Below, piece by piece: positions 1,446-48,302 of a stretch of 64,000 bases of DNA (positions within the stretch are counted from its first letter, which is position 1; every line of letters starts with the position of its first letter). This DNA is from a candidate division WWE3 bacterium. GTDB lineage: Bacteria; Patescibacteriota; WWE3; UBA101185; UBA10185. Under the pieces are notes generated by a model. It saw only the letters and a program-made list of their open reading frames with translations, was not told the origin of the DNA and did not search any database. The translations under genes were made by a program, and so were the position numbers. The DNA lies in the NCBI GenBank assembly GCA_014729135.1, contig WJKK01000001.1, positions 455,599 through 519,598 of the forward strand, given 5' to 3'.

Positions 1446-1532
1446 CCGGCGCGTATGTGATTTACAGGGGAGTACGGCACCGGCGAGCGTAGACGTTCTA
1501 CGCCCGCCGGCGATAAGTCCTAGTGCTGCCGG
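1446..1532 (-). repeat. nested-hairpin element E0
   Basis: 14-bp stem 1480-1493/1497-1510, continuous on the minus strand with one G.T pair. Flanked on the minus strand by ACTTAT and CGTA. Short outer stem 1446-1452/1525-1532. Confidence 0.6.
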
Positions 1533-1544
1533 TTGGGAGGTGCT

Positions 1545-1771
1545 TTAGCTGCCCTTTCCCGGTTTATTCGCTCTTTTTTCTTTTCTGGGCGAGTGGGTCT
1601 TTTTTTTCGTAATTCTTTTTGCTTTTTCTTCCCTCGCTCGCTTTTTCATCTCTTCCCCTTTCTCGTTTTTTTCCAAGTCTTCTTTTTTTCCTTTGCTCGA
1701 CTATGTTTGTCGAACTCTTTACGCTGTTTTTCCTTTGCAGCATTATGTTCGGTTTCAGGGTCTTGGGGCAT
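1545..1771 (-). CDS. small K/E-rich protein; 41 aa in frame 0, 75 aa with a -1 shift at A_AAA_AAG
   Basis: Strong SD AAGGAGGTGA before ATG 1771. TGA at 1646-1648. The -1 frame from 1682-1688 stays open to TAA at 1545-1547. Confidence 0.45.
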
Positions 1772-1877
1772 TTCCTCACCTCCTTTTTGTTAGGATGTCA
1801 ACTTGGGCGCATAATAACACAACCTCCCTTAAAAACGCCAAAAAATAAGCCCATAAAAATCTGATAAAATGCACCGG

Positions 1878-2894
1878 ATGACATTTTTTAGCATAGTAAT
1901 TCCCGTTAGAACCATTAACGACTACATAAAAGAAAACATTACCCATCTTAAAAAACTTGATTATCCTTCATTTGAAGTTCTAATAATAACCGATAAAAAA
2001 GAGGATCCTCCAACAAACGACAAACGTTTTAAATTCATCTCAAGTGGTCCTGTAGGTCCCGGTGAAAAAAGAAATCTTGGGGTAAAAAAGGCTCTAGGAA
2101 GTGTTATAGCTTTTCTTGATGATGATGCTTACCCTAAATCCAATTGGCTAAGGGAAGCTGAGCGAATATTTCAGGCAAATCCTACGCTTTATGCCCTGGG
2201 AGCTCCCGCAATTACACCAAAAGATTGTCCGTTAAGAGAGCGCATGTCCGGTCGAATTTATGAGTCTTATTTAACAGGGGGTAATACAACTTATCGTTAT
2301 TTACCTCAACAACAAAGAAAAGTTAGTGACTACCCAACCGTAAATCTCTTTGTAAAAAAAGAAGCCTTTGAAAAAGTCGGTGGTTTTCCTATAGAGTTTT
2401 GGCCCGGTGAAGATACTAAGCTTTGTCTTGATCTTGTGAAACTTCATGGGGCACCTTTCTTGTATGATCCTGCTCCCATTGTTTATCATCATAGGCGCGA
2501 TGTGTTTTTAAAGCATTTAAAGCAAGTTTCTCGATATGGTCAGCATAGAGGACAGTTTGCTCGCATATTTCCTGAAACTTCCAGATTGCCGTTTTATTTT
2601 GTGCCCTCGCTTTTTATTTTAGGGCTGTTTTTCGGGCCTTTAACCTTTTTACTTCATCCAATTTTTAAATTCATTTATTTTTCGGTGGTTTTTATATATT
2701 TGGGTTTACTGCTCTTGGAATCTTTGAAAGTAGGCTTAATGGAGAAAGGTTTGAAAGCCTTTTTTTACATGGCTGTGGGAATTTTTCTAACGCACGTTGT
2801 TTATGGATGGAATTTTATTTGGGGTTATTTAAAGAAGCCTTCACTTAAGCTTAGATCAGTTGACTTAAAAACCGGAAATTATGTCGGCGGTTAG
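1878..2894 (+). CDS. GT2 glycosyltransferase with C-terminal TM helices
   Basis: FSIVIP, FLDDDAYP and GEDTK motifs. Start moved to 1878, 7 nt after TGnTAAAAT. Confidence 0.9.
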   Translation: MTFFSIVIPVRTINDYIKENITHLKKLDYPSFEVLIITDKKEDPPTNDKRFKFISSGPVGPGEKRNLGVKKALGSVIAFLDDDAYPKSNWLREAERIFQANPTLYALGAPAITPKDCPLRERMSGRIYESYLTGGNTTYRYLPQQQRKVSDYPTVNLFVKKEAFEKVGGFPIEFWPGEDTKLCLDLVKLHGAPFLYDPAPIVYHHRRDVFLKHLKQVSRYGQHRGQFARIFPETSRLPFYFVPSLFILGLFFGPLTFLLHPIFKFIYFSVVFIYLGLLLLESLKVGLMEKGLKAFFYMAVGIFLTHVVYGWNFIWGYLKKPSLKLRSVDLKTGNYVGG

Positions 2895-2942
2895 GTAATA
2901 CTGGTACTCGTTCTGAAAAATTAAAGTGGTAGAATAATTTGT

Positions 2943-4535
2943 ATGAAAGTTGCCATAGCCTATCCCCCAATAGAAACCAACAAGGGAGTCCCTCTACTAT
3001 CGCAAAACCGCCAGTTTCAATACTTTAATACACCCACCTACATCTATCCCATGGTTCCGGCATATGCAGCTTCCTTGGCACAAAAGCGTGGTCATGAAGT
3101 CATTTGGATGGATGGGATAGCTTCAGAGCAAACTTATGCTCAATGGCTAGAGCAGCTGGATCAAGAAAGTCCCGATGTTTTAGTTATTGAATCTAAGGCC
3201 CCTGTTATTCGAAAGCATTGGGAAATCATCAAAGAAGTTAAGCAAAAGCATCCCAAGATGATAACGATTTTGGTGGGCGATCATGTTACCTATGATCCTA
3301 AAGAGAGCATGGAAAATAGTGTTGTAGATATGATTATTAGAGGAGGGGATTTTGATTTTGTTTTGGCGGATTTATTGGATGCTATTTCTAGTCAAAATAA
3401 AGAGGCAAAGATCCCGGGAGGAGTATGGCTTCGAAAAGACAAATCATTTTTAGAAATTCCCAAGGAGCAAGGCAACTATGACGGCGAATTTTGGATTTCC
3501 GGGCCAATGGAAATGCACCACAACCTTGATAGTTTACCTTTTATTGATCGCGATCTAACTCAATGGAAGCTTTATGCCTATGAAAACGGTAATTTTAAGT
3601 ACAAACCGGGAACTTATGTTTATTCAGGACGTGATTGCTGGTGGGGAAAGTGCACTTTTTGTATTTGGAATCACAGCCTGTTTCCTCAAGGAACTTATCG
3701 GCACTTTTCTCCTCATCGCCTCTTTGATGAAGTTAAGCACCTGGTAGATAACTACAGAGTTCGCGAAATTTTCGATGATGCTGGCACTATGTTTGTGGGA
3801 GAGGATCTTAAGACCTTTTGCCGCCTGCTGATAGATTCCGGTTATAACAAAAAAGTGGTTTACAGCTGTAACATGCGTCTTAAAGCGCTGGACCAAGAGA
3901 CTTATGATCTAATGGGGGACGCAAACTTCCGCTATATTTTGTACGGTTTTGAATCAGGAAATCAGGAGACTTTGGATCGTATTGATAAGGGTCTGCAGGT
4001 AGAGGAAATTGAACAGGGTCTTCGAATGGCTAAAAATGCAGGTTTAGAGCCCCACATTACTATTATGGTAGGGTATCCGTGGGAAACGGAGGAGATGGCC
4101 CGTAACACTATTAATCTGGCTAAGGAGATGTTTAAAAAAGGTCTTGTAGACACAATGCAGGCAACAATCACGGTTCCTTATCCGGGAACTCCTTTGTACA
4201 AGGAGTGTGTGGAAAAGGATCTTTTGTTGGTGGATCCAAAGGATTATGAGAAGTTTGACATGCGGGGTCCTGTTATGAAGGTGCCTTTTGACGAGTCAAA
4301 GCTGCATGATTTAACGCAGGAGCTTTATACGGTTTTTATGACGCCAAAGTTTATTTTGCGAAAGGTTATGTCGATTCGTTCTTGGGATGATATTGCGTTT
4401 TTTATTATGGCAGGGCGAAAGTTAATGGGTCATTTGTTGGATTTTGATCGCAGCCAGGAAGAGGCTGTTAAAGATCACGCCGGTTTATGGAAAAAGGGCC
4501 TACGAAAGCTAATGGGGAAAAAGCAAAAAGCTTAA
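2943..4535 (+). CDS. cobalamin-binding-domain radical SAM protein
   Basis: N-terminal B12-binding-like Rossmann region; GRDCWWGKCTFC (CX4CX2C), GFESGNQETL, MVGYPWET and PYPGTPL. Confidence 0.9.
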   Translation: MKVAIAYPPIETNKGVPLLSQNRQFQYFNTPTYIYPMVPAYAASLAQKRGHEVIWMDGIASEQTYAQWLEQLDQESPDVLVIESKAPVIRKHWEIIKEVKQKHPKMITILVGDHVTYDPKESMENSVVDMIIRGGDFDFVLADLLDAISSQNKEAKIPGGVWLRKDKSFLEIPKEQGNYDGEFWISGPMEMHHNLDSLPFIDRDLTQWKLYAYENGNFKYKPGTYVYSGRDCWWGKCTFCIWNHSLFPQGTYRHFSPHRLFDEVKHLVDNYRVREIFDDAGTMFVGEDLKTFCRLLIDSGYNKKVVYSCNMRLKALDQETYDLMGDANFRYILYGFESGNQETLDRIDKGLQVEEIEQGLRMAKNAGLEPHITIMVGYPWETEEMARNTINLAKEMFKKGLVDTMQATITVPYPGTPLYKECVEKDLLLVDPKDYEKFDMRGPVMKVPFDESKLHDLTQELYTVFMTPKFILRKVMSIRSWDDIAFFIMAGRKLMGHLLDFDRSQEEAVKDHAGLWKKGLRKLMGKKQKA

Positions 4536-4553
4536 TATTTTGTGTTTTTAAAT

Positions 4554-5036
4554 ATGTCTTACCTTCTTTTTACTGAAATCCTTCACTTTTTGGGAGCTTT
4601 GGCTTTATTTTTACTCTTTCTCCGTTTTTACAAGTGGTATATAGCAGGATTTTCCTTTCTATTTGGTTTTCTAATAGATGTAGATCATCTTTTTGATTAC
4701 TTTTATTTTATGAAATTTTTTAATAGGGGCTTTAACTTACGGGATTTTCTTTCAGCACAGTCTGTTACAACCGGAAAAATTTTTATTCCTTTTCATGGAT
4801 GGGAATGGGTTGTCCTACTGCTTCTCTTAGCATTGCTTTTTAGGGCTCTTCTTAACAGTGGAACTTTAAAAAAGGACTTTTGGAAAATTTTGGCTCAGAT
4901 TCTTTTTGTTGCAGGTACTTCTTTATTTACACATATTTTAACGGATTACTTTACTAACGAGGTGGGTTTTGGGGCCTATTCTTTCTTTTGGCGTTGGAGC
5001 AATGGTTTCTATACATCTTTAATCTGTGGAAAGTAA
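4554..5036 (+). CDS. small membrane protein, YdjM-like putative metal-dependent hydrolase
   Basis: About 4 TM segments with H, DVDH, FHGWE and HILTD residues. Confidence 0.65.
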   Translation: MSYLLFTEILHFLGALALFLLFLRFYKWYIAGFSFLFGFLIDVDHLFDYFYFMKFFNRGFNLRDFLSAQSVTTGKIFIPFHGWEWVVLLLLLALLFRALLNSGTLKKDFWKILAQILFVAGTSLFTHILTDYFTNEVGFGAYSFFWRWSNGFYTSLICGK

Positions 5037-5110
5037 TTTTTACTTGACACAACAAGCAGAAGTGTCCTGAAAGTTTGGTAAAAGTGCAATTTTAATGCAA
5101 TAATGCTTCT

Positions 5111-6013
5111 ATGAGTGGAAATGAAATAGACTTTATAGGTATTGGAGGGTACCGCTGTGCTACTACCTGGATTTCTCGTTGTTTGCAAGAACATCCCGAT
5201 ATTTTATTTTCTGCTCAGAAATCTCAAAAGGAGCTTCACTTCTTTAATGATCAAATAATTTCCGGGCTTTATTACAAGAAAAACCCACGTTATGCAAAAG
5301 GACTAAAATGGTATTTAAAACAATTTCCTAAAGCAAAACCGGGGAAGTTGCGAGGGGAATATTCCGTTAGTTATCTTCCTGACAAAAAAGCTCCCCAAAG
5401 AATTAAAGAGGCATTCTCGAACGTAAAATTGATAGTTTCTTTAAGGAATCCTGTAGATGTTTTATATTCCGGATTTAAGTATTCTCGAGGCGGCATTTTA
5501 TCTGAGGTGGATGAATTTCCTTCAATTTTTGAGAAGGTCCTAGAGAGCAACGATTATCTGGATTTGGGGTTTTATAGTAACCATTTGAAGCGTTATTTTG
5601 ACTTATTTCCTCGAGAAGATGTATTTATAATTATTTATGAAGAAGATATTTTGGAAAAGCCTGCGGAAACGATACAGAATTTATATCGCTTTTTGGGGGT
5701 TGTGGATGATGTTATTCCTCCCACTCTAGAGCAGAGAATAAATAAGTCTTTCCAGGTAAAAATGCCCTATTTGAAGAAGCTAGGGGAAATTGTTTATACT
5801 TATTTGGGTGATTGGAGGATTCCTGTGCTTAACAAGACTATCTTTCAAACTCGGTTTTTTCGGGATCTCTATTCTTTGATAAATAAAAAAGACTCTGCTA
5901 TAGAGGCGATGCGTCCGGAGGTACGTAGCAAGTTAGAAAAGTTTTATCATAAGGATATATCCAGGCTGGAGAATCTCATAGGGCGTGATCTATCTTGTTG
6001 GAGGTCTGACTAG
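5111..6013 (+). CDS. PAPS-dependent sulfotransferase family protein
   Basis: GIGGYRCATTW (5'-PSB-like), KELHFF, GEYSVSY and LRNPVD..YS (3'-PB-like). Confidence 0.85.
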   Translation: MSGNEIDFIGIGGYRCATTWISRCLQEHPDILFSAQKSQKELHFFNDQIISGLYYKKNPRYAKGLKWYLKQFPKAKPGKLRGEYSVSYLPDKKAPQRIKEAFSNVKLIVSLRNPVDVLYSGFKYSRGGILSEVDEFPSIFEKVLESNDYLDLGFYSNHLKRYFDLFPREDVFIIIYEEDILEKPAETIQNLYRFLGVVDDVIPPTLEQRINKSFQVKMPYLKKLGEIVYTYLGDWRIPVLNKTIFQTRFFRDLYSLINKKDSAIEAMRPEVRSKLEKFYHKDISRLENLIGRDLSCWRSD

Positions 6014-6015
6014 AT

Positions 6016-7119
6016 ATGCGGGTTCTTTCTTTTATGAACTCCTATTCTTATGGCCTTTCCGGTAGTGATGTAGTTTTAATTCGCATAGCTCCGCAAGTTT
6101 TTAAGGATTTTAATCAAACTGTTATAACTTCAAGAATGGGGCGTCTTGTTTGTGAGAAAAATGATTTTACTCCAAATTTCATAGTTACAACCAAGGAAGA
6201 AAGGTTTAAAAGTATAATTTGGACTTATATTAAGAGGATTTTTCTTGCTTCCTTGAGCGTACTAAGGGAGCCTATTCCTAATATTTGTTTTGCTTCGTCT
6301 GATTTTTTGCCGGATGTTTTTCCCTGCTTTCTGCTCAAACTTAAAAATCCCGATACTTTATGGGTGCAGCACATTTATCATTCTATACCTAGGCAACGCG
6401 TAATTCCTTTTTTAGCTCAAAGAATAAGCTTTATTCTAATTCGTTTTCTAGCAGATAAAGTGGTTGTGGATAATAAAATTTTAAAGCAGGATCTTATTGA
6501 AATGGGTTTTAAGCCCTCCAGATTATATTTAAATTATCCGGGATTGGATTTTGAGAAGTTTGAAAATTTACCGGAACCCAAGAAAGAATATACCGCTTCT
6601 TTTATTGCCCAATTAAGGCGCTCTAAAGGTGTTTTAGATTTGCCGGAGATTTGGGCTCATGTTGTTAAAGACTTTCCCGATGCAAATTTAGCTATTATTG
6701 GAAGTGGTACTAAGGAACTTCTTGAGGAATTAAAACAAAGGATTCTATTTTTAGATTTGCAGGAGAATATAGATGTTTTAGGGTTCTTGCCTAATAAAGA
6801 GGCCTTTTCCATTATTAAGGATTCGGATGTTTTTGTCTTTCCCAGTTATGAGGAGGGTTTTGGGTTAGCTCCTTTAGAAGCACAGGCGTGTGGTACTCCG
6901 GTGGTGGCTCGGGATCTTCCGGTTTATGAGGAGATTTTCCCGGAGGGTATGGTTAAGGCTTCTTTGGGTGATTATAGGGGTTTTTGGCAGGCGGTTCTTG
7001 AGGTTCTGGTAGATCCAAGACTAGCTGATGATTTAGTTGAAGCATGTCATGTGAACTCCGCACTTTTTAGCTGGTCTAAAACCATTTCTCGAGAGAAGGA
7101 AATATTAGAACTGGCTTGA
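6016..7119 (+). CDS. GT4 glycosyltransferase
   Basis: KG motif and FPSYEEGFGLAPLEAQACGTPVV. Confidence 0.9.
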   Translation: MRVLSFMNSYSYGLSGSDVVLIRIAPQVFKDFNQTVITSRMGRLVCEKNDFTPNFIVTTKEERFKSIIWTYIKRIFLASLSVLREPIPNICFASSDFLPDVFPCFLLKLKNPDTLWVQHIYHSIPRQRVIPFLAQRISFILIRFLADKVVVDNKILKQDLIEMGFKPSRLYLNYPGLDFEKFENLPEPKKEYTASFIAQLRRSKGVLDLPEIWAHVVKDFPDANLAIIGSGTKELLEELKQRILFLDLQENIDVLGFLPNKEAFSIIKDSDVFVFPSYEEGFGLAPLEAQACGTPVVARDLPVYEEIFPEGMVKASLGDYRGFWQAVLEVLVDPRLADDLVEACHVNSALFSWSKTISREKEILELA

Positions 7120-7150
7120 TATAGTTAAGATAAATGGAGACAATAAACAT

Positions 7151-21662: not shown

Positions 21663-21670
21663 ATTAACCC

Positions 21671-21714
21671 GGATCTCGGGAGACAGCGTAACAGCTCCCG
21701 AGATCCTGCTTTTT
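21671..21714 (+). terminator. intrinsic terminator
   Basis: Perfect 12-bp stem GGATCTCGGGAG/CTCCCGAGATCC followed by TGCTTTTT, just after stop 21662. Confidence 0.75.
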
Positions 21715-21729: not shown

Positions 21730-23220
21730 ATGAGAGCCATCCTAAAAAAACACCCCTTCCTTACAATCGTAATCTCAGCCACACTTGTATACTTTTTCTC
21801 CTGGTTTTTTGCATGGAAAATTGGCGTTAACGACTTACCTATTCAATCCGAAGACACTTTACCCGCCATTTTTATGCCCGTTACAATCCTAAAAGAAGGC
21901 ACAATTTACCTTGACTCCTATTACGACATGCTTCTTTCGCGCTATCCTCACCCTGATGATAAGAGTTATGAAAAGGGGTTAGTTCCTTTTTATTTGCGGG
22001 AAGTGATTTCAGATTCACGGAATGACACACACTACGTCTCTGCATTTACTATAATAACGCCTCTGCTGGCTTTGCCGGTTTATTTTCTTCCGGTTCTTTT
22101 GGGAGTTTCTATAAATTGGACAAACTTGATTGTCCTTTCTCATTTAGCAGCTTCCTTCATTGTTGCTTTATCCGGTGGGTTTCTCTATTTGCTTTTAAGG
22201 AAGCACTTTTTTTCTCAAGATTCCGGCAAAACCTTTTTTAAACAAAAATCTCTATTGCTTACTGCAATTTATTTATTTGCAACCATAAATTTTGCGCACA
22301 TTTCTCAAGCTCTTTGGCAACACGGGACAGTTCAACTTTTTACGATTTTGGCTCTTTGGGCAATTTACGAAAAACGCTACCCTCTCACCGGACTCTTTTT
22401 TGGCTTAATGATCCTTTCTCGCCCCACCTCCGCCATCCCTGTCACCCTTCTTGGTTTAGCAGCCCTGACGAATTTGTTCAATACTTCTCCCTCTTCACAG
22501 GTTGAAGCCTCAGAAAGGAAAACTGAGAACACCTCTTTTAAGCGAACTTTTGCAGACCGCTATTGCGGTCGAAACGTGAGTCTAAAAGATGGTGTTCTCA
22601 GTTTAATTGCGCTTTCTTTAGGTTTCTTGCCTACCTTAATCTTCTTCCTCTGGTACAACAAAACCTACTACGGCAACATCTCCAATCAAGGCTACTCCAA
22701 CCAAATCTTCACCGAATGGAAAGGACGCTTCCCTGAAGGCTTCCTAGGCCTTTGGATCTCCCCATCAAAAGGAATCCTAATTTACTCACCAATCTTTATC
22801 TTTTCTCTTGCCGGCCTCTATTTAGCCGTCAAAAACCGGAAACAAAACTTAAACTGCATAATCCTTGGCTTAATCGTCTTAATTCACACACTTGTCCTTG
22901 GAAAATGGAAGCACTGGTATGGGGGATGGTCCTTTGGCTATCGCATGGCCTCCGATGTAATTCCCTTTTTAATCTTACTAATGGTCCCCTTTATAAAATC
23001 CTCCCATTTTCAAAAAGCAAAAAACTTATTTTTCATACTTTTTGGCCTTTCAATTTTTGTCCAATTCTTTGGAATAGTCTTTTACGATGGAACTTGGCAT
23101 TCTGCTTATGATCTGGGATATGAAAACACCTCTTGGCTTTGGTCCTTAAAAAATAGCGAACTAATCTTCAACATTCGTAGAGTACTTGTAAAAACAGGCT
23201 TACGCGCCACACCTTTTTAG
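21730..23220 (+). CDS. GT-C-like (PMT-type) membrane glycosyltransferase carrying an in-frame palindromic insertion
   Basis: Acidic EDTLP after TM1, LWQH, SRP, SPSKGILIYSP and WYGGWSFGYR; many TMs. Confidence 0.75.
   Translation: MRAILKKHPFLTIVISATLVYFFSWFFAWKIGVNDLPIQSEDTLPAIFMPVTILKEGTIYLDSYYDMLLSRYPHPDDKSYEKGLVPFYLREVISDSRNDTHYVSAFTIITPLLALPVYFLPVLLGVSINWTNLIVLSHLAASFIVALSGGFLYLLLRKHFFSQDSGKTFFKQKSLLLTAIYLFATINFAHISQALWQHGTVQLFTILALWAIYEKRYPLTGLFFGLMILSRPTSAIPVTLLGLAALTNLFNTSPSSQVEASERKTENTSFKRTFADRYCGRNVSLKDGVLSLIALSLGFLPTLIFFLWYNKTYYGNISNQGYSNQIFTEWKGRFPEGFLGLWISPSKGILIYSPIFIFSLAGLYLAVKNRKQNLNCIILGLIVLIHTLVLGKWKHWYGGWSFGYRMASDVIPFLILLMVPFIKSSHFQKAKNLFFILFGLSIFVQFFGIVFYDGTWHSAYDLGYENTSWLWSLKNSELIFNIRRVLVKTGLRATPF
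22520..22604 (+). repeat. nested-hairpin element E1 (inside CDS)
   Basis: Arms AAACTGAGAACACC-TCTTTTA / TAAAAGA-T-GGTGTTCTCAGTTT enclose CGAACTTTTGCA-GACCGC-TATT-GCGGTC-GAAACGTGAG. Confidence 0.85.
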
Positions 23221-31139: not shown

Positions 31140-31165
31140 CACTTAAGGATGATCCTTCATCCTTT

Positions 31166-31275
31166 CTTTCAGAACATTATCACTAAGCTCAAACCGTACT
31201 TTTTAGCAAGGATTATCTTTGTGTCCGAAGGCACTCATCCTTGTTATCGTGGGTTTTGCTGAGGTTGTTTGAAGG
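31166..31275 (+). repeat. nested-hairpin element E3 between convergent genes
   Basis: CGTACTTTT-[TAGCAAGGAT..GTGTC-CGAA-GGCAC..ATCCTTGTTA]-TCGTGGG inside further stems. G.T pairs favour the plus strand. Confidence 0.65.
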
Positions 31276-31276
31276 A

Positions 31277-32488
31277 TTATCCTTGGATTTTTGGAAGGGT
31301 TTTTAAGGGAGATTCGTTTTTAGCAAATATAAACACAGCTGTTCCCAGGACAGCAACAATTGAGGCTAAAAGCTGTGCCAAAGCCAGCCCTCTTAATTGC
31401 ATTCCAGGTACCAGAAGTAACACACTTAAAATAAAGGTTCCCAGTTTTAACCCGTTAATCGCCAAAATTTTTCCCGTACTTTCCTCAATAAAAAAATAGT
31501 TTTCCATAAAGGAGGCTACAGCTGCTAAAGCTCCTGCAAAAACCAGAATATTTAAAAGATCCAAAGACGCCTCAAATTGGGGTCCAAAAAAATTCGCAAT
31601 AACAAATTTTGACCCAATAACTCCTAAAACGCCCATAACTAAAAGCAGCATGGCAAGTAACGCTGCCTCATCAAAACTATACTTAAGCTCTTGCTTTTTA
31701 CGCTTTGCATTTTTAGGAAGTAGAACCGAAAAGATTGAAAGTGACAGCAAAGCAAAAACTACCGAAACCTTGTTAGCCAATGCAAAAACTCCCACATCTG
31801 AAAACCCCTGAATTATTTTAGCTATAGCATTTGAAAGAGGTGACCATATTTCCGTAATTGTTTGCGACACTCCCGCAGGCCATGCCTCCAGTAAAAGTTT
31901 CCACGTAGATTTATCAATTTTTAGATTTAATTTTTTCAAGGGATTGTCTTTAAGGACAAGCAAAGCGCCTCCAAAAATAGAAAGCCCAAAAATTGCTGTT
32001 GTTAAAGGAACTGTTGGATTTACAATTCCAAAATAAAACAAGGGAGCTGCTAAGGCTTTTATTAAAGCGGGAAGTGTATACAAGAGAACAAGATAAGTGT
32101 ATTTTTCTTCCTTTTGGTAGAAGGCATATAAGGTGTAGTTAAGCGCATAAGCTAGGACACTTCCCAAGAAGATTAGTATTAAAGCCATGGTTGCCAGTTC
32201 AAGAACGTGCAAGGCGGTAACTCCCAAAATGATTGCCCCTATAAAAAGGGGGATTTTGGCAGGAACAAAGGCTTTCTTTTTAGACGGGTTTAGAATGGAG
32301 CCGGCAACAAAAGTGGAGTTGGTTCCAAAGTCGGTTAAGCGCCCTATGACAACGGTTAAGCTAATAAAAAGTGAGTATTTTCCAAAGTCTTCAACCGGAA
32401 GTGAGTTGGCAACTGCCCAAAGATAAATGAAACCGAGAAGGGCGTTAAACATGTTGCCTACAGCAACAAAGGATATCTTTTTTAACAT
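31277..32488 (-). CDS. Wzx-like oligosaccharide flippase
   Basis: About 12 TMs; FGKYSLF, DFG, VGVFALA and LLPK patterns. Confidence 0.85.
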   Translation of the reverse strand: MLKKISFVAVGNMFNALLGFIYLWAVANSLPVEDFGKYSLFISLTVVIGRLTDFGTNSTFVAGSILNPSKKKAFVPAKIPLFIGAIILGVTALHVLELATMALILIFLGSVLAYALNYTLYAFYQKEEKYTYLVLLYTLPALIKALAAPLFYFGIVNPTVPLTTAIFGLSIFGGALLVLKDNPLKKLNLKIDKSTWKLLLEAWPAGVSQTITEIWSPLSNAIAKIIQGFSDVGVFALANKVSVVFALLSLSIFSVLLPKNAKRKKQELKYSFDEAALLAMLLLVMGVLGVIGSKFVIANFFGPQFEASLDLLNILVFAGALAAVASFMENYFFIEESTGKILAINGLKLGTFILSVLLLVPGMQLRGLALAQLLASIVAVLGTAVFIFAKNESPLKTLPKIQG

Positions 32489-37258: not shown

Positions 37259-37300
37259 GGGTTAAACTCTCTCCCTAAAACCATGTGATATACTGTTTCC

Positions 37301-39109: not shown

Positions 39110-39117
39110 CGTTTTTA

Positions 39118-39150
39118 TGGGGAGGCATCTCTGCAGCGGATGTCTCCCTA
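39118..39150 (+). terminator. terminator-like hairpin
   Basis: TGGGGAGGCATCT/GGATGTCTCCCTA, 13 bp including G.T pairs, just after stop 39109. No clear T-tract. Confidence 0.55.
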
Positions 39151-39266
39151 TCCTCTGGTTAGATTGTAAATCAAGGTAAACTTCAGATTTCATACATATT
39201 CGACCCGTATATAATGGCAAAATCCTCATCTAATAAAAAAGTGCCCGTTTTTGAGTCAGATTTGAT

Positions 39267-39341
39267 CCCAAATTTGGAGTAAATATTCATTTCGAGCGAA
39301 GCGAAACTGAACGAAAAACGAGTACTCCGAAGACTTTCGGG
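39267..39341 (+). repeat. nested-hairpin element E5 (GCGAAGC subfamily)
   Basis: TTTGGAGTA/TACTCCGAA arms around CATTTCGAGCGAAGCGAAACTGAACGAAAA; closely resembles the E4 core. Confidence 0.65.
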
Positions 39342-39352
39342 TTTTTTCTGTG

Positions 39353-39436
39353 TTGACATTGGATACTCTATGGTGGAATATAGATACAGATTGGTGATCA
39401 ATGGTGAAAAAGGACAGTCCTTTAAGAGGACTGTCC
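39353..39436 (+). promoter_or_regulatory. mraZ promoter/leader with candidate MraZ boxes
   Basis: TTGACA at 39353. TGGTG at 39371, 39392 and 39402, the last two 10 nt apart as in MraZ operator repeats. Perfect 10-bp hairpin GGACAGTCCT/AGGACTGTCC at 39412-39436. Confidence 0.55.
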
Positions 39437-39452
39437 CTCCAGAAAAACGGGT

Positions 39453-39866: not shown

Positions 39867-39878
39867 TTGGAGTAGCTT

Positions 39879-40799: not shown

Positions 40800-40811
40800 A
40801 AAATAAATAAA

Positions 40812-41150
40812 ATGAAAAAAATTAACCTAATAAACCGGAATATTCTCTCAGCAGATTTTCTAAAAAAGATTTGCAAAATTTCCGCAGCCATTTTTATTGG
40901 GTGTTTTATAGTTCAATTTTACTTAAGTAATCGCTATGCTGTGAAAAATGCATCCCTTCAGGGTTGTTTAAGTCAAAGTGCTTCCTTGGAAAAAGATCTG
41001 GCAAGACTTAAATATCGCGCCTCTCTGCTTTCTTCCCTTGAACATATAGAAAAGAAGGCAAAGGAACAGGGCTTTACTGAAATGGATCAAAATTTGTTGA
41101 CAATTGGGCCTACTACAGTGGCGTCAGCAGCTTCTTTAACAAATCGCTAG
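40812..41150 (+). CDS. FtsL-like small bitopic coiled-coil protein
   Basis: One TM plus coiled coil with IEKKAKEQGF; located between rsmH and a PBP. Confidence 0.7.
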   Translation: MKKINLINRNILSADFLKKICKISAAIFIGCFIVQFYLSNRYAVKNASLQGCLSQSASLEKDLARLKYRASLLSSLEHIEKKAKEQGFTEMDQNLLTIGPTTVASAASLTNR

Positions 41151-41216
41151 TTTCTGTGGGGAAAATTTCTATAGAGAAGCCATTAAAAGCGTCACCGGAA
41201 ACAGTAAATTTTTCCT

Positions 41217-42968
41217 TTGAAGACAGCTCTAAATAAATTTCCAAATCCAAACGTGCGAAAGTACAAAACTACAACATCTCAAAATCGAATAAAGTTCATT
41301 TCTGCTTGTTTTTTGGCAGCAGCTTCTCTTTTGGTGGCAAAGCTTTTTTACATTCAGGTGCTGTCGCATGAAAAATACGAGGCCTTGGCACAGGATCAGC
41401 ATTGGATAATAGAAGAAATTCCGGCCGGTCGTGGGACGATTTATACTAAAGATGGGGCGGTGTTGGCCTCAAATCAAGACTATTACCTTTTATATGGAGA
41501 GCCTTTGCGAGTTGATGATACGCCTTACTTGGCGGATAAATTGGCGCAGCTTCTTAGTGAAAGAGACTTTGGAACTTATGAGGAGCTTTATGCTAAGTAT
41601 GTTGATTTGTTGGATCGTGATCTCTGGTGGATTGCTTTGGAGCGCGATATTGATCCTTTAACTAAGGAGGCGCTTGAAAATCTGGAGTTGGCTGGCATTG
41701 GATTTGAGCTTGCTCCTAAGCGTTTTTATCCTGAGGAAACTTTAGCTTCGCACGTTTTGGGATTTGTGGCTTTTAACGAGGATGGCGAGCGGGTGGGCTA
41801 CTTTGGAGTTGAGGGTAATCTGGATGGTGATTTACGAGGTAAACCCGGAAAAGTAGTTCAGGAAAAAGATGCTGAAGGTAATCCCATTTTAGTAGGGGGT
41901 TATGAAAGAACTGATTCTATTAAAGGGCGTGATGTGGTTTTAACTTTGGAGCGTCCTGCTCAGTATTTAGTTGAGCGCGCCCTTGAGGATGCCGTAAAAA
42001 AATATGGAGCTGCTTCAGGAAGCGTTATTGTCATGGATCCTTTTACGGCCGAAATTATTGCCATGGCAAACTATCCGGAGTTTAACCCTGCTAAACTTGA
42101 GAGCGAATCTCAAGCTAAAAATTTGGCCATTGCAGACACTTACGAACCGGGTTCTGTTTTAAAAGCGTTCACTGTTTCTGCGGGTATTGACTCTGGTAAG
42201 ATCACGCCAGCAACTACTTTTGTGGATCGCGGTCCCGTAACTTATTCGGATTACACAATTGATAACTGGGATGGTAAACATCATGGTGTTCAGGATATAG
42301 CTCAACTCTTGCAAAAATCTAACAATATAGGAGCTGCTTGGATGGGTCATCAAGTTGGTTCTGACGACATTCACAAGTATTTTTCGCGTTTTGGTCTGGG
42401 GGAAAAGTCAGGAATTGGCCTAGAAGGTGAAGATACAGGAGTAATTCGCGATCCGGCTACTTGGACGGCAATTGATTTAGCTACTATTTCCTTTGGTCAA
42501 GGTATTTCTGCCACCCCTCTACAGGTTTTAAATGGTTTTAATGCTATTGCCAATGGAGGTGTTTTGTATCGCCCTCGAATTATTTCCGAAATTATTACAG
42601 AGGATGAGGCTTTAACAATGGAGACTAAAAAGATTCGCCGGGTTATTAGTTCAAAGACTTCGCAGACAATGGTTGATTTGTTGACTTCTGCGGTAGATCA
42701 AGGAGAGTCTAAGTTTTTTAACATTGATGGTTATAAAATAGCGGGTAAGACCGGTACGGCGCAGATTCCCGAGGAGGGTACTTATGATCCTTCGGAGACT
42801 AATGCTACGTTTGTGGGCTTTCTGGCGGGGTCTAAACAATTTTCTATGCTAGTTAGACTTGAGCGTCCTTCAACAAGTCCTTATGCAGCGGAGACGGCTG
42901 TCCCTTTATGGATGGATCTGGCGCACGAATTGGTGACTTATTACGGTATTCCCCCTGATAATTTGTAG
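41217..42968 (+). CDS. ftsI: class B penicillin-binding protein (FtsI/PBP3-like); start uncertain
   Basis: RGTIY, RFYP, GVEG, EPGSVLK (SxxK), SNN (SxN) and KTGT. Confidence 0.9.
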   Translation: MKTALNKFPNPNVRKYKTTTSQNRIKFISACFLAAASLLVAKLFYIQVLSHEKYEALAQDQHWIIEEIPAGRGTIYTKDGAVLASNQDYYLLYGEPLRVDDTPYLADKLAQLLSERDFGTYEELYAKYVDLLDRDLWWIALERDIDPLTKEALENLELAGIGFELAPKRFYPEETLASHVLGFVAFNEDGERVGYFGVEGNLDGDLRGKPGKVVQEKDAEGNPILVGGYERTDSIKGRDVVLTLERPAQYLVERALEDAVKKYGAASGSVIVMDPFTAEIIAMANYPEFNPAKLESESQAKNLAIADTYEPGSVLKAFTVSAGIDSGKITPATTFVDRGPVTYSDYTIDNWDGKHHGVQDIAQLLQKSNNIGAAWMGHQVGSDDIHKYFSRFGLGEKSGIGLEGEDTGVIRDPATWTAIDLATISFGQGISATPLQVLNGFNAIANGGVLYRPRIISEIITEDEALTMETKKIRRVISSKTSQTMVDLLTSAVDQGESKFFNIDGYKIAGKTGTAQIPEEGTYDPSETNATFVGFLAGSKQFSMLVRLERPSTSPYAAETAVPLWMDLAHELVTYYGIPPDNL

Positions 42969-43034
42969 CAAAAATTCTAGTTAAACTAGAATATTCCCCC
43001 TTGAAGTGTTTATTTGTGTTGCTATATTTAGTGT

Positions 43035-43403
43035 GTGGGTGTTTTAAGTTTAAAGTCAGGTGCTCAAGCGGAAAAAATTGCTGTTAAGTATCTGCAAAAA
43101 CTTGATTACGAAATTATAGATACAAACTGGAAGTGTAAGTGTGGCGAGATTGATATTGTTGCTTCTAAGGATTTTCAGCAGATTGTGTTTTTTGAGGTTA
43201 AGTATCGAAAGGATGCTCGTTTTGGTTATCCGGTGGAGTTTATTTCTGCCTCTAAGTTGGCTAAGTTGCGAAAGGCTATCGAGGTGTTTTTGCTTATGCA
43301 TGCTCCTGCTGACATTTCCTGGAGGCTTGATGGTTTGTGCCTTATGCCCAGGGAGGGTAAGTTGCGCCTTCGCTGGTATGAGTGTTTGTTCTCAGATATC
43401 TAA
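43035..43403 (+). CDS. yraN: YraN family PD-(D/E)XK protein
   Basis: GAQAE, GEIDIVA and FFEVKYR. Confidence 0.9.
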   Translation: MGVLSLKSGAQAEKIAVKYLQKLDYEIIDTNWKCKCGEIDIVASKDFQQIVFFEVKYRKDARFGYPVEFISASKLAKLRKAIEVFLLMHAPADISWRLDGLCLMPREGKLRLRWYECLFSDI

Positions 43404-43411
43404 TATCAATA

Positions 43412-43561
43412 TTTGTTGGAGAGATCTCGCTACTTCCTTACGTTTCGCCCGCACATATTTTTATAAATAAATGGACAGGCTGTGTTCATGGTAAATTTGC
43501 CCTTATATATTGGTTTTCGTGCGGGCTGCAAAAGTGCGTCAGTAGGAGATCTCTCCACAAA
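43412..43561 (-). repeat. nested-hairpin element E2 between convergent genes
   Basis: Outer arms TTTGT-T-GGAGAGATCTC-G-CTACT / AGTAG-GAGATCTCTCC-ACAAA. Minus-strand core CGCACTTTTGCA-GCCCGCAC..GTGCGGGC-GAAACGTAAG. Confidence 0.85.
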
Positions 43562-43563
43562 GA

Positions 43564-44667
43564 TTAATTTGAAAGTATTACTAAATTTGGTTCTGTGGTT
43601 TTGCTAGTTGCCTGAGTTGTATCTTCCCCGGCGGGCCCAGCAGCTTCTTCCACAGGGAAAAGCATTTCCTGAATATCCTCATGCAAACTTGCAAAATCCG
43701 GCTCCCGTGGGATAAAAACCCACGCATGATACTCACTATTAGGATAAAGACCCGGATGATAAACATACTTCCCATCAACAACAAAGGAAACCACCTTGTA
43801 ATCCTCCCGATCCTTGTAAAAATCCCACAAATAGCGCACATCCTCCAATTTAAGCGTTGTGTACATCCGCTGAGCTGCCGTAACTGCCTTATAAAATTTC
43901 TCAATATCCATCGGCCAAAAATCACTTGCCGGTTGACTAACTCCCTCTACCATGCCTGCCAAAATTCTATGTTGTCTTTTAGCACGCATTAAATCACTAC
44001 CCTCACCATTAGTACCCTTACGGGAACGTGCAAAATCCAAAGCCCTCCAACCATCCATAACCTCACGACCCGCCTCAAAACTTACCGGCTTTAACCCCGT
44101 ATCCGTGTTATTTGGAAAGTGCGTATCTGTAAAACTTCGTTCAACCTCAACAGGAACACCTCCAAATGAGTCTACAATCCAACGGAAATCTTCAAAGTCG
44201 CAGCGAATATAACCATCCACCTCCAAACCGGTAACCTGCTCAAACGCATCAATTAAAGTTTCAGGACCCTTAACCGAATATAAAGCGTTAATCTTATTAC
44301 TATTTACCCAAAGATCCCGCGGTACTGAAGTTAAAAGCATAACATTATCCTCTGGATTTAAACTGGCAAGAATCATGACGTCGGTGTTATAAGTTGTAGC
44401 TGCTTTACTTCTGCGGTCTATGCCCAAAAGAAGCACATTAATAACATCTTTATTTGCAAGTTCGGACTTAGGTTTTTCTGCCTCTTTTGAGGCTAAATCT
44501 CCAAAACCAATGCCTCCGGAATTTTCATCTTCAGTACCTTCCTCCAAAGAACTTTTTGCCAAATTCTCCTCCTCCTGCCGAATAAAACGAGGCCTTAAAC
44601 CTAAAAAGATTCCTGTAGCAATTGCCCCTGTAACAACCGCTAATTGTATAAACAGTTTTTTGTTCAC
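43564..44667 (-). CDS. LCP (LytR-CpsA-Psr) family glycopolymer transferase
   Basis: N-terminal TM, NVLLLGID, TDVMIL, SVPRDLWV, KINA and RAKRQ. Confidence 0.93.
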   Translation of the reverse strand: MNKKLFIQLAVVTGAIATGIFLGLRPRFIRQEEENLAKSSLEEGTEDENSGGIGFGDLASKEAEKPKSELANKDVINVLLLGIDRRSKAATTYNTDVMILASLNPEDNVMLLTSVPRDLWVNSNKINALYSVKGPETLIDAFEQVTGLEVDGYIRCDFEDFRWIVDSFGGVPVEVERSFTDTHFPNNTDTGLKPVSFEAGREVMDGWRALDFARSRKGTNGEGSDLMRAKRQHRILAGMVEGVSQPASDFWPMDIEKFYKAVTAAQRMYTTLKLEDVRYLWDFYKDREDYKVVSFVVDGKYVYHPGLYPNSEYHAWVFIPREPDFASLHEDIQEMLFPVEEAAGPAGEDTTQATSKTTEPNLVILSN

Positions 44668-44722
44668 CCTATCAGGATATTAGTGTTTACTTTTAGAGTC
44701 AAATTACTTATGATTAGTTCAT

Positions 44723-45121
44723 ATGAAAAAAATTCTCATCATAGAAGACGACCAATCCCTTTATAACGTTTACTCCGCTGAATTAAAGCTTCGAGGTTAC
44801 GAAGTAGAACATGAAGCCGACGGAATGAAAGCCATGGCTAAAATCGAGGATTACAAACCCGATTTAATCTTGCTTGACATAATCCTTCCGGGAAGAAACG
44901 GGCTGGAAATTCTGGAGGAAATGTTTAGTCGCGATGAATTTGAGGACATGAAAGTAATTATGGTTACAAATTACGGTAACGACTCTAATGTTAAAAAGGC
45001 TTTGGAGTTGGGCGCAATTGACTACGTATTAAAGTACAACATTGTGCCGTCTGAATTATCTGCCCGAGTAGCTGAGGCTTTGGGGGAGAGTGAAGATACT
45101 CCGGTTAAAATAACAAGCTAA
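44723..45121 (+). CDS. single-domain response regulator (REC)
   Basis: ILIIEDD, LLDIILP and GAIDYVLK. Confidence 0.93.
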   Translation: MKKILIIEDDQSLYNVYSAELKLRGYEVEHEADGMKAMAKIEDYKPDLILLDIILPGRNGLEILEEMFSRDEFEDMKVIMVTNYGNDSNVKKALELGAIDYVLKYNIVPSELSARVAEALGESEDTPVKITS

Positions 45122-45136
45122 ACTACTAAAACACCA

Positions 45137-46783
45137 ATGGATTTGTGGGTTAAGATCTTAATAGGAATATCAATTCCCTTTTTTGCTCTTGTAGCTGTTG
45201 TAGTTTATCGCCTTCTAACTCTTCAGAAAAGCTTAGGTAAAACAAAATACCTGACGCTTGATCCTTCTGTCATTCATGCTTTGGTTACACGTGTAAGTAA
45301 AGAGTATGCAGAGGATTTGGATCTTAAGGCTGCTTTAGACTTGCTGATAGAAGTTTTAATTGACAATGTGTCTTTTACTGCAGCTTCGTTTTTAATTCCT
45401 GTTACGGAAAATAGTTCTGATTTTAATTTCAAATCTCACTTGGTTTATGAGGTTCCCGAGGCTTACGTTAAAGGCAATATTGACGTTTTGAAAAAGTATG
45501 TGGAAGAGCATATGGAGGTTTCCGTTGAGAATATTAATCGGGAGGTTGAAGGTGGGCCTATTAATTCTTCCAGTAATGTGCAAGCTTTATCTCGGGTTAT
45601 TTTGCCTATAGAGGTAGGCCTTCTGAGAGGGGCTTTATGCATAACTTCGCGAAAGCGTGATCATTTTTCTGAACAATTAACGGAGGATCTTAAAGAGCTT
45701 ATTCATTCGGTTTCAGAGTGTTTGGAGTTGTTATGGGGAGTGGCCCGTAGAGAGCGTCGCAAGTTTAAGGCCATGGTTGATAGCATGCGTGATGGTGTTT
45801 TTATGGTAGACGAGGAGTATCGCTTTTTAATTGCTAATCCTGCACTGAAGGACATGTTAGGGCTTTATTCATCTGAGTCCGTAAATGTTGTACGCGTTTC
45901 TAGCTTTTTTTCACGCCATCTTTCCTTTGAGGATTTGGTTTCGGAAGTTTTTGTTATGGGTAAGACCAAAAAGATTGAGCATCTGGAGCTCGAAGACAAG
46001 ATTTATACGCTTACGGTTATTCCGGTGAAGGTGAAAAATGTTGTGTCTGCAGTGGTTTGCCTTTTGGAGGATCAAACAAAAGATGCTGAACTTGAAGAAA
46101 TGCGTCGGGACTTTTCAGCCATGATTATCCATGAACTTCGTTCTCCTTTGTCGGTTATTCGAGGGACTTCTGACTTTTTGTTGAAGGAATCGGCTAATAT
46201 GGATGATTCACAAGAAATGACTTTTATGGAGCAGATTAAAGAGTCTTCTACTAAGCTTTTGGCTTTGGTTAACAATTTGCTGGATTCTGCAAAGATAGAA
46301 AGTGGAAAGATAGAATTGTCCAAAAAGATGACAGACTTGGCCAAGCTGATTAAGAGTGAGGTTGAATACTATGCTTATTCTGCCCGCCAAAAGAAGATAA
46401 ACTTAAAGTCAGATGTTGAGGTTGGTCTAGCCGAGGTGAACGTGGATTCGGAGAAGATTCAACAGGTGCTTAATAACCTTATTTCTAATGCGCTTAAATA
46501 CACTCCGGATGGTGGGGAGATAGTGGTTGGGGCTTTGCATACGGGGGACACTGTTCGTCTCTATGTATCTGATACGGGAAGGGGTATAGCAGATGAAAAT
46601 AAGGATCAGATATTTGATAAATATAAGCGTGTTGAAGGCGGCTCTTTAACTTCGGATGGTGAAAAGAGTACGGGGCTTGGTTTGGCTATTTCCAAGGGAA
46701 TTGTGGAGGCTCATGAAGGAAAGATTTGGGTTGAGGATAATGAGCCTAAAGGATCTCGCTTTATTGTTGAGTTGCCCGCTTAA
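45137..46783 (+). CDS. sensor histidine kinase (TM, GAF-like, PAS, HisKA, HATPase)
   Basis: HELRSPL, NLISNALKY, DTGRGI and GLGLAIS. Confidence 0.95.
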   Translation: MDLWVKILIGISIPFFALVAVVVYRLLTLQKSLGKTKYLTLDPSVIHALVTRVSKEYAEDLDLKAALDLLIEVLIDNVSFTAASFLIPVTENSSDFNFKSHLVYEVPEAYVKGNIDVLKKYVEEHMEVSVENINREVEGGPINSSSNVQALSRVILPIEVGLLRGALCITSRKRDHFSEQLTEDLKELIHSVSECLELLWGVARRERRKFKAMVDSMRDGVFMVDEEYRFLIANPALKDMLGLYSSESVNVVRVSSFFSRHLSFEDLVSEVFVMGKTKKIEHLELEDKIYTLTVIPVKVKNVVSAVVCLLEDQTKDAELEEMRRDFSAMIIHELRSPLSVIRGTSDFLLKESANMDDSQEMTFMEQIKESSTKLLALVNNLLDSAKIESGKIELSKKMTDLAKLIKSEVEYYAYSARQKKINLKSDVEVGLAEVNVDSEKIQQVLNNLISNALKYTPDGGEIVVGALHTGDTVRLYVSDTGRGIADENKDQIFDKYKRVEGGSLTSDGEKSTGLGLAISKGIVEAHEGKIWVEDNEPKGSRFIVELPA

Positions 46784-46789
46784 TCTTTT

Positions 46790-48211
46790 ATGAAGGTACC
46801 GCAGCACATTTTTAGAAAATATGACATTCGCGGTTTATATCCTGAAGATATTAATAAGGATAATGCCTATTTGATTGGCTTGGCTATTGGTTCCATTTTT
46901 AAGGCGAGGGGTTATGCCTCTTGTGCTTTGGGGTGGGACAATAGAGATAGTTCTGAGGCCCTTCGTGATTCTGTTTCTTTTGGGCTTTCTGATATGGGAA
47001 TAAACGTGAAGCAGTTGGGGATAGTGCCTACTCCGCTTGTGTATTTTATGACTTGTGAGGATGACGTTGATTGTGGTGTGCAAATTACGGCAAGCCATAA
47101 TCCGAAGCAATTTAATGGGGTTAAGTCTGTGCACAATGATGCCTATAAGTTTGCACCTGAGGAGACTCAAGAGATTTATAAGCGTGTTTTGGAGTTTAAA
47201 GAGCAGGGGATTTCTTTGGAGGATCGGTTTGAAGATGCTTCTGCCACTGCGTCTGGTGAAATTTCGGATTTTTCCGATGCCGTAAGTCGTTATGTTAGTT
47301 ATTTTGTGAATCATTTTGAATTTGACCGTCCTTTAAAAGTAGTTTTAGGTTGCGGGCATGGCTCTTGTAGTGAAATTGCTCCTTTAATTTTTGAGAGTTT
47401 GGGTTGCGAAGTGATTTCAGAGGATTGTTTCTTGGATTCCGATTTTCCCAATGGAATGGCTAATCCGGAGGATCCTGCTTTTATGGAGCGTTTATCGTCT
47501 TTGGTAACAAAACACGACGCAGATCTAGGCATCGGTTTTGATAGTGATGGTGATAGAGTTGGCTTTATTGATGAGAAAGGGAGGCCTGTTCCTATGGCGG
47601 AAGTTTTGGCGCTTTTTACGCAGGAGGTTATGGAAGTTTATCCGGGGGAGGATGTAATTTATGATGTTAAGTTTAGTCCTTTAGTAGGAGATGTAATTGA
47701 GTCTTTGGGAGGTAATCCTATTCAGGTGGCTACGGGGCATCCTAATATTGACCCGCGTATCAAAGGGGGAGCAGCTTTGGGGGCGGAGTTTTCAGCACAC
47801 ATTTATTTTGGGCATGTTTATAGGAATCACGATGATGGGATTTATGCAGCTGCGCGCCTTTTGAAGGTTTTAGACGCGCGCAGTAAGCCTCTTTCTAGTT
47901 TGGTGGGGTTTTTACCGGAACGTTCTTCTTCTCCCGAGTACAAGATTCCCTGTCCCGAAGAGGATAAATGGCGGGTGATTGACTCCTTGGTTGACACGGT
48001 AAAAAAGGATTTTTCAGATGTTCTTACTTTGGATGGTGTAAAAGCTCGATTAACAAAGGGTGCTTGGTTTTTAATTCGTGCTTCCAATACATCGCCTTAT
48101 TTAAGTGTTCGCATGGAGGGTTCTTCACCGGAAGAGCTTGAAATGGTGAAGTCTAATGTTTTGCAAATTTTACGGAAGCATCCTGTGTTGGATTTAACTT
48201 CTTTGGTCTAG
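46790..48211 (+). CDS. phosphomannomutase/phosphoglucomutase
   Basis: FRKYDIRG, TASHNP, DSDGDR and RASNT. Confidence 0.95.
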   Translation: MKVPQHIFRKYDIRGLYPEDINKDNAYLIGLAIGSIFKARGYASCALGWDNRDSSEALRDSVSFGLSDMGINVKQLGIVPTPLVYFMTCEDDVDCGVQITASHNPKQFNGVKSVHNDAYKFAPEETQEIYKRVLEFKEQGISLEDRFEDASATASGEISDFSDAVSRYVSYFVNHFEFDRPLKVVLGCGHGSCSEIAPLIFESLGCEVISEDCFLDSDFPNGMANPEDPAFMERLSSLVTKHDADLGIGFDSDGDRVGFIDEKGRPVPMAEVLALFTQEVMEVYPGEDVIYDVKFSPLVGDVIESLGGNPIQVATGHPNIDPRIKGGAALGAEFSAHIYFGHVYRNHDDGIYAAARLLKVLDARSKPLSSLVGFLPERSSSPEYKIPCPEEDKWRVIDSLVDTVKKDFSDVLTLDGVKARLTKGAWFLIRASNTSPYLSVRMEGSSPEELEMVKSNVLQILRKHPVLDLTSLV

Positions 48212-48225
48212 GGGGATCTTCTTTC

Positions 48226-48302
48226 TAAGGTGACAAACCCCTTTTCGTTTCCACGACTTCGCTTCGCTCCGAAATGTCACCGAAAAGGGGCCCATCACCT
48301 TA
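48226..48302 (-). repeat. nested-hairpin element E4 (GCGAAGC subfamily)
   Basis: On the minus strand a 22-bp uninterrupted stem TAAGGTGATGGGCCCCTTTTCG/CGAAAAGGGGTTTGTCACCTTA with four consecutive G.T pairs, around GTGACATTTCGGAGCGAAGCGAAGTCGTGGAAA. Confidence 0.85.

Follow-up and report, generated by a model that had tools for sequence, protein, structure and literature searches.

A lineage-restricted family of strand-polarised DNA hairpins with a conserved mismatch core in a WWE3 bacterium

The genome of a candidate division WWE3 bacterium contains 24 copies, in three core types, of a dispersed hairpin element of 70-190 bases in which a central ladder of mismatches is conserved while the sequence of the long outer stem drifts. 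The element was noticed in a stretch of 64,000 nucleotides (hereafter the window), which corresponds to C1:455599-519598 of the source genome (G000; one contig of 864,248 bases, 95.75% complete) and carries genes for sugar transferases, the mraZ cell-division cluster, glycolytic genes, lexA and uvrB. Further copies were found in a genome of a different genus of the same family (G463, 765 kb covered) and in three other relatives (G001, 619 kb; G002, 303 kb, about half of that genome; and G446). We put at about 0.6 the probability that this is a lineage-restricted, non-autonomous selfish repeat, folding as single-stranded DNA (ssDNA) and moved or refreshed by a trans-acting ssDNA nuclease or transposase like that of the REP (repetitive extragenic palindrome)/RAYT (REP-associated tyrosine transposase) or Ssn systems, although the enzyme was not found. 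The literature yielded no description of such a repeat in this lineage; the supplementary tables on REPs or Ssn-related motifs (SRM) could list related ones.

The copies are united by a mismatch ladder (G·A and T·C) and not by the sequence ACTTTT..CGTG, which an earlier note on this DNA, made from the sequence alone, had taken for the essential core. As the alignments are read, the order from the outside to the apex is an outer stem made of a purine run, a short centre and a pyrimidine run, a tandem GA-GA, 5-7 positions of which some are Watson-Crick paired and others T·C or T·G, usually a second GA-GA, and the apex. The core types in the source genome are as follows.

Type A, 9 copies: GA-ATTTT ... 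AACCT-GA
Type B, 9 copies: GA-ACTTTTGCA ... GAAACGT-GA
Type C, 6 copies: GA-CATTWCG ... GTCGTG-GA

At the apex stands a 2-bp stem with a triloop (often GAA or AAA), a small hairpin, or cargo that reaches 130 nt. Three genomes supplied 19 copies with a short apex (24 regular-expression matches minus 5 outside the family); the triloop register pairs both bases in 18 of them, as against 5 and 0 for two tetraloop registers, and the 2-bp stem occurs in five forms (GC/GC, CC/GG, AT/AT, AC/GT and CT/AG). PMC13037366 describes GCGAAGC and CCGAAGG as DNA mini-hairpins that contain a sheared G·A pair; the equivalent RNA hairpin is far less stable. A core of G·A and T·C mismatches, often capped by such a 2-bp stem and triloop, fits DNA better than RNA.

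The outer stem, with a median of 18 bp, had been called free. The arms do vary (41% pairwise identity), but they keep a common pattern of eight pyrimidine-rich positions with an invariant C, followed by a purine run. Cognate arms pair at -14.0 kcal/mol and non-cognate arms at -5.7, and strong stem covariation confirms that structure rather than sequence is conserved. In the type C alignment (plain MAFFT, 14 copies), 21 of 25 pairs have changed on both sides, with a covariation score of 0.591 against 0.212 in shuffled and at most 0.246 in slid alignments, scores in which, the controls being shuffles and slides, relatedness among the copies is retained. A first mixed MAFFT alignment gave covariation above all 500 shuffles, but its +1 slide scored higher (0.351 vs 0.307) because registers differ between core types; after fitting to a model, on which the result leans, the true register of the mixed alignment reached 0.415 against 0.211 shuffled and at most 0.271 slid. 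The conserved stem mismatches (the GA-GA and T·C columns) give strand asymmetry, and the models strongly favour the motif strand over its complement (for example 53.8 vs 18.5 bits, for copies on which they were trained). In the REP and Ssn repeats known so far, a short sequence tag and a conserved stem provide the link to the enzyme; in the present family, a drifting stem sequence together with a retained non-canonical core points to recognition by DNA shape.

A descriptor scan of the source genome gave 32 matches, compared with 4 and 6 in two shuffled versions, so that the element is more frequent than in shuffled sequence. The copies were then scored with left and right half-profiles plus a stem term, built from 21 clear matches: 23 distinct copies score at least 40 (21 of them the seeds), the top control scores being 28.6-35.9, and the 24th, at 824539, is a plain type C copy with a score of 31.6. 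Trained largely on these copies, a covariance model found 20 of them again and no additional strong site, the four that it missed bearing inserts of 82-131 nt. Copies and half-copies adjoin one another at several sites, and one pair (821998 and 844727) is nearly identical including its flanks. GC skew places the origin at about 239 kb and the terminus at about 736 kb. The left replichore holds 20 of the 24 copies, on both strands; an unrelated GGAC(A/T)GTCC repeat has the same skew. The idea that orphan half-elements on either side of a gene pair over a long distance was abandoned, just one weak pair having emerged.

Some copies have noteworthy surroundings or contents. Three type B copies (C1 10322, 126452 and 786209) have a common multi-hairpin cargo of 100-130 nt, one module of which recurs in tRNA-adjacent repeats of G463, and two copies in opposite orientation lie at C1 83950-84180, in a region read as the 23S-5S rRNA spacer. 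Three-tier hairpins at C1 10509, 14199 and 55251 share with type A a GAA ... TGAG tandem and a CGTACTCG or GCGAAGC apex, and on this resemblance may form a sister family of the mismatch-core repeats.

Within the window, the earlier note had grouped six elements, E0 to E5, into one family. The five cores that it quoted are all present, and all six elements fold as hairpins, with DNA folds better than those of shuffled sequence (z of -7.3 for E1, -4.3 for E2, -5.4 for E4, -2.4 for E5, -2.5 for E0 and -3.4 for E3). The family has more copies than had been noted, but fewer of the six are among them: E1, E2 and E4 belong to it in full and E5 as a decayed member, whereas E0 and E3 fall outside. Profile half-scores are 12-20 for E1, E2 and E4 (all three in the training set) against a background 99.9th percentile of about 5, a weak 6.4/7.1 for E5, -17.8/-18.2 for E0 and -7.1/-17.3 for E3. 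The identity of E5, which came without coordinates, is our own choice, namely the GAGCGAAGCGA hairpin at 39240-39326.

E1, 22520..22604, plus strand: full type B copy, arms at about 22520-22542 and 22582-22604, core 22543-22581
E2, 43413..43560, minus strand: type B copy whose apex carries an 82-nt insert; neighbours yraN and lytR, convergent
E4, 48226..48302, minus strand: type C copy with a GC-GAA-GC apex, antisense, between the phosphoglucomutase and phosphoenolpyruvate-synthase genes
E5, 39240..39326, plus strand: type A-like copy, decayed and interrupted by an internal insert, directly upstream of the mraZ promoter
E3, 31145..31284, plus strand: non-member, an array of three AAGGAT.AT.YT palindrome units
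E0, 1446..1530, minus strand: non-member, a single-copy GC-rich hairpin 3' of a short Lys/Glu-rich open reading frame (ORF)

E1 lies in frame inside a gene for a membrane protein of 496 aa (21730-23220). The units of E3 are 63 and 64 nt apart, which is the modal spacing (63-65 nt) of the AAGGAT.AT.YT repeat in the source genome; in G463 this repeat flanks a Y1 (RAYT) transposase gene. E0 has no second copy in the source genome or in any locus retrieved. The ORF that precedes it (1535-1770, minus strand) has a strong ribosome-binding site, is convergent with the upstream glycosyltransferase gene, and has no clear homologue among the retrieved loci.

Is the element active as DNA or as RNA? The motif strand is not tied to transcription, as the earlier note had proposed from E4, which is indeed antisense: by rough, automatic labels, some of which depend on doubtful ORFs, 25 cases in the source genome divide into 10 antisense, 6 sense, 6 convergent and 3 divergent. 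G·T pairs had also been said to mark the motif strand, and they do so to a modest extent (35 G·T vs 18 A·C in 33 copies, p=0.027). Agreement with the view that no described RNA family is involved comes from Rfam, which gave 0 matches at the gathering threshold in the window and, on 19 loci, four weak miRNA-shaped matches (E 0.9-4.5). We consider it improbable that the element is a structured RNA, such as a processing, stabilising or protein-binding hairpin, that has spread via transcripts. The motif strand is antisense at least as often as sense, the conserved apex is a 2-bp stem with a triloop and not a tetraloop, and Rfam offers nothing, at gathering or at E<=5, but miRNA-shaped chance hits; these points outweigh in our judgement the good fold as RNA, the G·T excess on one strand, and the two copies in the interval from the rRNA genes to rpsA, one of them directly upstream of a gene read as 5S. 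RNA often contains tandem G·A pairs, which counts for the same alternative. Because orientation is mixed, the G·T excess does not decide, Rfam has no real match and both strands are used in the left replichore, we favour a folded ssDNA as the acting form.

A mobile ssDNA hairpin could work in the following manner. One strand would fold while the DNA is single-stranded, at the replication fork or as the competence machinery takes it up. The enzyme would then read a strand-specific shape formed by sheared G·A pairs and mini-hairpin loops, and the outer stem would only have to pair. A cut beside the hairpin, with strand transfer or repair, would generate new copies, often next to old ones or in their place, and copies would decay wherever the activity of the family has ceased.

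Comparison of orthologous sites is consistent with insertion. Several syntenic spacers are short and element-free in relatives: the pheS-pheT spacer is 135 nt in the source genome vs 34 and 42 in relatives without a copy, the dsbA-like/nth spacer 134 vs 33 and 65, the yraN-lytR spacer (the E2 site) 161 vs 68 in G001, and the rplA/ATPase spacer 164 vs 66. In the region C1 717882-719009 PheS ends in LYGSVFDY directly before a type A copy, and it ends in DLRFLEQF, with pheT abutting, in G001 and G463; the insertion may have changed the C-terminus of PheS in the source genome. Copies also stand in frame in three genes, namely the E1 gene, a gene of 557 aa (an antisense type B copy; 186 nt between anchors vs a mode of 126 in 30 relatives) and a deaminase loop (a type C copy; 108 nt vs 30 in G001 and G463).

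The same sites recur with different cores. Of 26 loci for the E1 site, 17 are short and lack the element. The site holds type B copies in both the source genome and G001, the latter with compensatory arm changes and a different apex, an A-like remnant in G002, an intact type C copy in G463 and a decayed one in G446; across genomes, the cores at this site occupy three reading frames. The E5 site, before mraZ, holds intact type C copies in G463 and G446. Three of the eight G463 copies (in the E1 loop, after prfA and before mraZ) share site and strand with a source-genome copy of another core type (rough p=0.004), and their arms are no closer than those of random copies (ranks 12, 13 and 17 of 25); the source-genome sites that match the other five are empty. 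Such sharing is best explained by whole-element replacement or repeated insertion at favoured sites, and it may also stem from long divergence with core conversion. A bolder version of the mobile repeat, which we hold as possible though doubtful, is that these are tag-less hairpins recognised by shape alone, the shape being a ladder of sheared G·A and T·C mismatches under a mini-hairpin cap, and that a novel ssDNA nuclease or recombinase homes into occupied sites and replaces the copy there, so that sites persist across genera while the element turns over. Reuse of one site by different core types is in any case an unusual and testable pattern, and the hairpin offers a ready substrate for seeking a new single-strand-specific enzyme.

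The in-frame sites bear on a further idea, that the arms are copied from local target DNA by fold-back when the core inserts. At two of the three sites the hairpin exceeds the net insertion by about one arm, and the right arm of E1 scores like native protein, controls being as high in 1 of 21 cases for the source genome and 1 of 23 for G001. The idea nevertheless seems very improbable, since the 557-aa gene gives no such signal (control arms as high in 7 of 16 and 3 of 21 cases), nor does G002 (4 of 23), and every arm has one purine/pyrimidine pattern with the invariant C.

The family is restricted to the source lineage and its closest relatives. Searches covered 134 genomes of the class and 149 of the phylum, with 31-35 candidates scored per genome. 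Strong matches were found in just 5 of the 134 class genomes, the source genome and four relatives. In G463, a model trained without that genome found 7 copies at E<=6.6e-6, and there are 8 in total, all of type C; G446 has 2 copies (E 1.4e-9 and 0.0034 by a type C model trained on neither), G001 has 1, and G002 has one intact copy besides the decayed one at the E1 site. The intact G002 copy is also contained in loci L088 and L113; in L113 it lies upstream of a gene for a SAP-domain protein of 348 aa (1796-2842, minus strand). A single doubtful match among the 149 phylum genomes (G067, inside a coding region) was set aside, as were, on examination, weak model matches in G462, G004 and G506. 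Exact-pattern searches found nothing in 60 relatives or 400 phylum genomes; they gave 0, 2 (without a stem) and 0 matches in viral sequences, 0 and then 21 (1 real) in metagenomes, and 10 (1 real) in species genomes. Of the plasmid and phage BLAST searches, one gave a single match of 24 nt at E 0.5 and the other none.

Absence may be overstated in fragmented assemblies. Four of the 15 scaffold gaps mapped in the 303 kb of G002 lie within 200 nt of a source-genome copy site (by chance 20 of 440 spacers, p about 0.004), and none of the 20 gaps of G001 or the 13 of G463 does; the bases following one G002 gap match the end of the E4 outer arm. This suggests that hairpin repeats drop out of short-read assemblies, so absence in G002 is soft; since the hairpins seem to break such assemblies, repeats of this kind may be undercounted in Patescibacteria.

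These distributions also allow us to weigh a domesticated host ssDNA signal, a mark for recombination, transformation or primase loading that a housekeeping protein would read and that would be gained and lost slowly. We regard this as unlikely: a strong match in just 5 of 134 class genomes and a single copy in the 619 kb covered of G001 suit it poorly, as do insertion in frame into genes and a strand that is not fixed within the left replichore, where the skew of 20/24 is shared by an unrelated repeat. Yet it would agree with the lack of a dedicated enzyme, the three sites retained across genera, the G002 gaps at copy sites, and the position of copies beside comEA and yraN (comEA domains and yraN were checked) and beside genes labelled by reading only as pilin-like, recF and UvrD-type helicase; mini-hairpins are, moreover, known from primase and N4 polymerase sites, according to PMC13037366.

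Among known systems, the closest likeness is to REPs, which PMC8266576 describes as palindromes of 20-50 nt preceded by a conserved tetranucleotide, GTAG or CGTC, and recognised strand-specifically through mismatches within the folded stem. REP copies flank a gene for the transposase TnpA-REP (RAYT), which cleaves the folded single strand. As described in PMC8266576, PMC3733652 and PMC6006769, REP, BIME and REPIN elements resemble the present one: both are strand-specific imperfect hairpins, dispersed and for the most part intergenic, that conserve mismatches; both have neighbouring copies and some in-frame ones, lack target duplication and are patchily spread. Unlike the REPs so described, the element has no GTAG/CGTC tag, is longer (70-190 nt) and does not flank the Y1 genes examined; and unlike REPs and REPINs it conserves a central mismatch ladder while the long stem varies in sequence. 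A REPIN or BIME consists of two conserved inverted REPs around a variable spacer, an arrangement that is reversed here, with arms 41% identical around a conserved spacer. The earlier analogy with a REP/RAYT recognition hairpin thus survives for a strand-polarised, dispersed hairpin conserved in structure, but not for any trans-acting enzyme: no RAYT or GIY-YIG gene flanked by copies was found among the genes of the source genome or in 29 Y1 loci.

Could a RAYT of the source genome or of a relative nevertheless mobilise a REPIN-like doublet, in which each arm would be a diverged REP with a purine run, a centre and a pyrimidine run, and the core would have co-evolved as their spacer? In outline, the arms are similar to the palindromes GGAC(A/T)GTCC and AAGGAT.ATCCTT, between which Y1 genes lie. 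G000, G002 and G463 each have a Y1 gene; none was found in G001 or G446, which have 1 and 2 copies of the element. We give this little credence, as the arms, the expected RAYT target, vary while the spacer is conserved, single arms fold weakly on themselves (mean z -1.0), a Y1 gene is present in 31 of 86 family genomes and the element in almost none, and G446 has an intact copy where no Y1 gene was found.

Ssn-related motifs (NTS/SRM), which GIY-YIG nucleases of the SsnA type cut and which flank a small cd10448 GIY-YIG gene, share with the element, to judge from PMC11893778, an ssDNA hairpin, variable flanks, a small purine-rich apical loop and a competence-gene lineage; they differ in that the element has no CGTCA/GTCAT head (0 of 33 copies), is about three times longer and does not adjoin the small GIY-YIG genes of the source genome. 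TIR/TIRYT repeats (PMC3733652, PMC6006769) have similar inverted arms of purine and pyrimidine runs, some partly self-complementary, as dimers, but their GGGGWSAS motif is in 0 of 33 copies, and no transposase gene is flanked. Unlike a miniature inverted-repeat transposable element, the family lacks conserved arms, and no target-site duplication is visible by eye. The attC sites of integrons, an analogy drawn earlier, are hairpins closed by R''/R' boxes (RYYYAAC ... GTTRRRY); these boxes are in 0 of 33 copies on either strand, and the genes next to copies are mostly housekeeping genes on mixed strands (no intI search was made). Rickettsia palindromic elements insert in frame into tolerant protein loops in either orientation, which is a likeness of behaviour only; the peptide of the present element is much shorter. 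Since the element lacks their tags and consensus and adjoins none of the enzyme genes examined, it is not placed within REP/REPIN or Ssn; by analogy, it may work like these repeats without their tags.

Several observations weigh against a mobile repeat with an enzyme of its own. The single Y1 transposase gene of the source genome is flanked by GGAC(A/T)GTCC palindromes and not by the element, which is in none of 29 family Y1 loci (taken from 46 matches listed) by inverted repeats or profile scan. The two small GIY-YIG genes of the source genome have no adjoining copy, and none lies near its three GIY-YIG matches. DUF559, tried as a partner, was rejected: it was found in none of the 5 genomes that carry the element or are sisters of carriers, and in 9 of 89 genomes of the order. 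The 5' flanks contain GTAG in 2 of 24 cases and CGTC in 0 of 24, and no flank motif or guide word survives multiple testing; with neither tag nor enriched flank word, nothing marks a cut or guide site. Only one duplicate pair is clearly recent, the G·T excess fixes a strand and not the molecule, and would equally suit RNA of that strand, sheared G·A pairing in the core is a prediction read from sequence, and the three sites kept across genera could reflect host function instead of re-insertion.

The small GIY-YIG genes have no NCBIfam assignment, and a cd10448 gene of the Ssn kind may have been lost from the source genome. The longest shared flank word (3.8 vs 3.4 in permutations, p=0.028) is inflated by two mis-called stem ends. 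Genes present in G000 and G463 but not in the covered part of G001 amount to 120 candidates, too many to inform; by reading of the sequences, the only mobile-element genes among them are the Y1 gene and one IS-like ORF. A CGTC-type repeat also occurs in the source genome with no GIY-YIG gene beside the copies inspected, which makes orphan repeat families plausible there.

Finally, a few features of the surrounding DNA may be recorded. At 21666-21711, 39117-39150 and 39405-39443 of the window are two hairpins that resemble terminators and occur once each, as well as a GGAC(A/T)GTCC doublet placed after the mraZ promoter and before the start codon; the argS (51940-53166) and uvrA (61850-64000) frames look fragmented, perhaps as pseudogenes or through assembly errors. 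The palindrome TTCTAG-N5-CTAGAA occurs at 42970-42995 of the window and at C1 36635, 40001, 163783, 405409, 424184 and 829449, 44-122 nt upstream of yraN, comEA and genes read as dprA, comFC, radC and recA (comEA and yraN were checked by profile). A competence/recombination regulon could use it as its operator; several Y1 transposase genes have similar words at their flanks.

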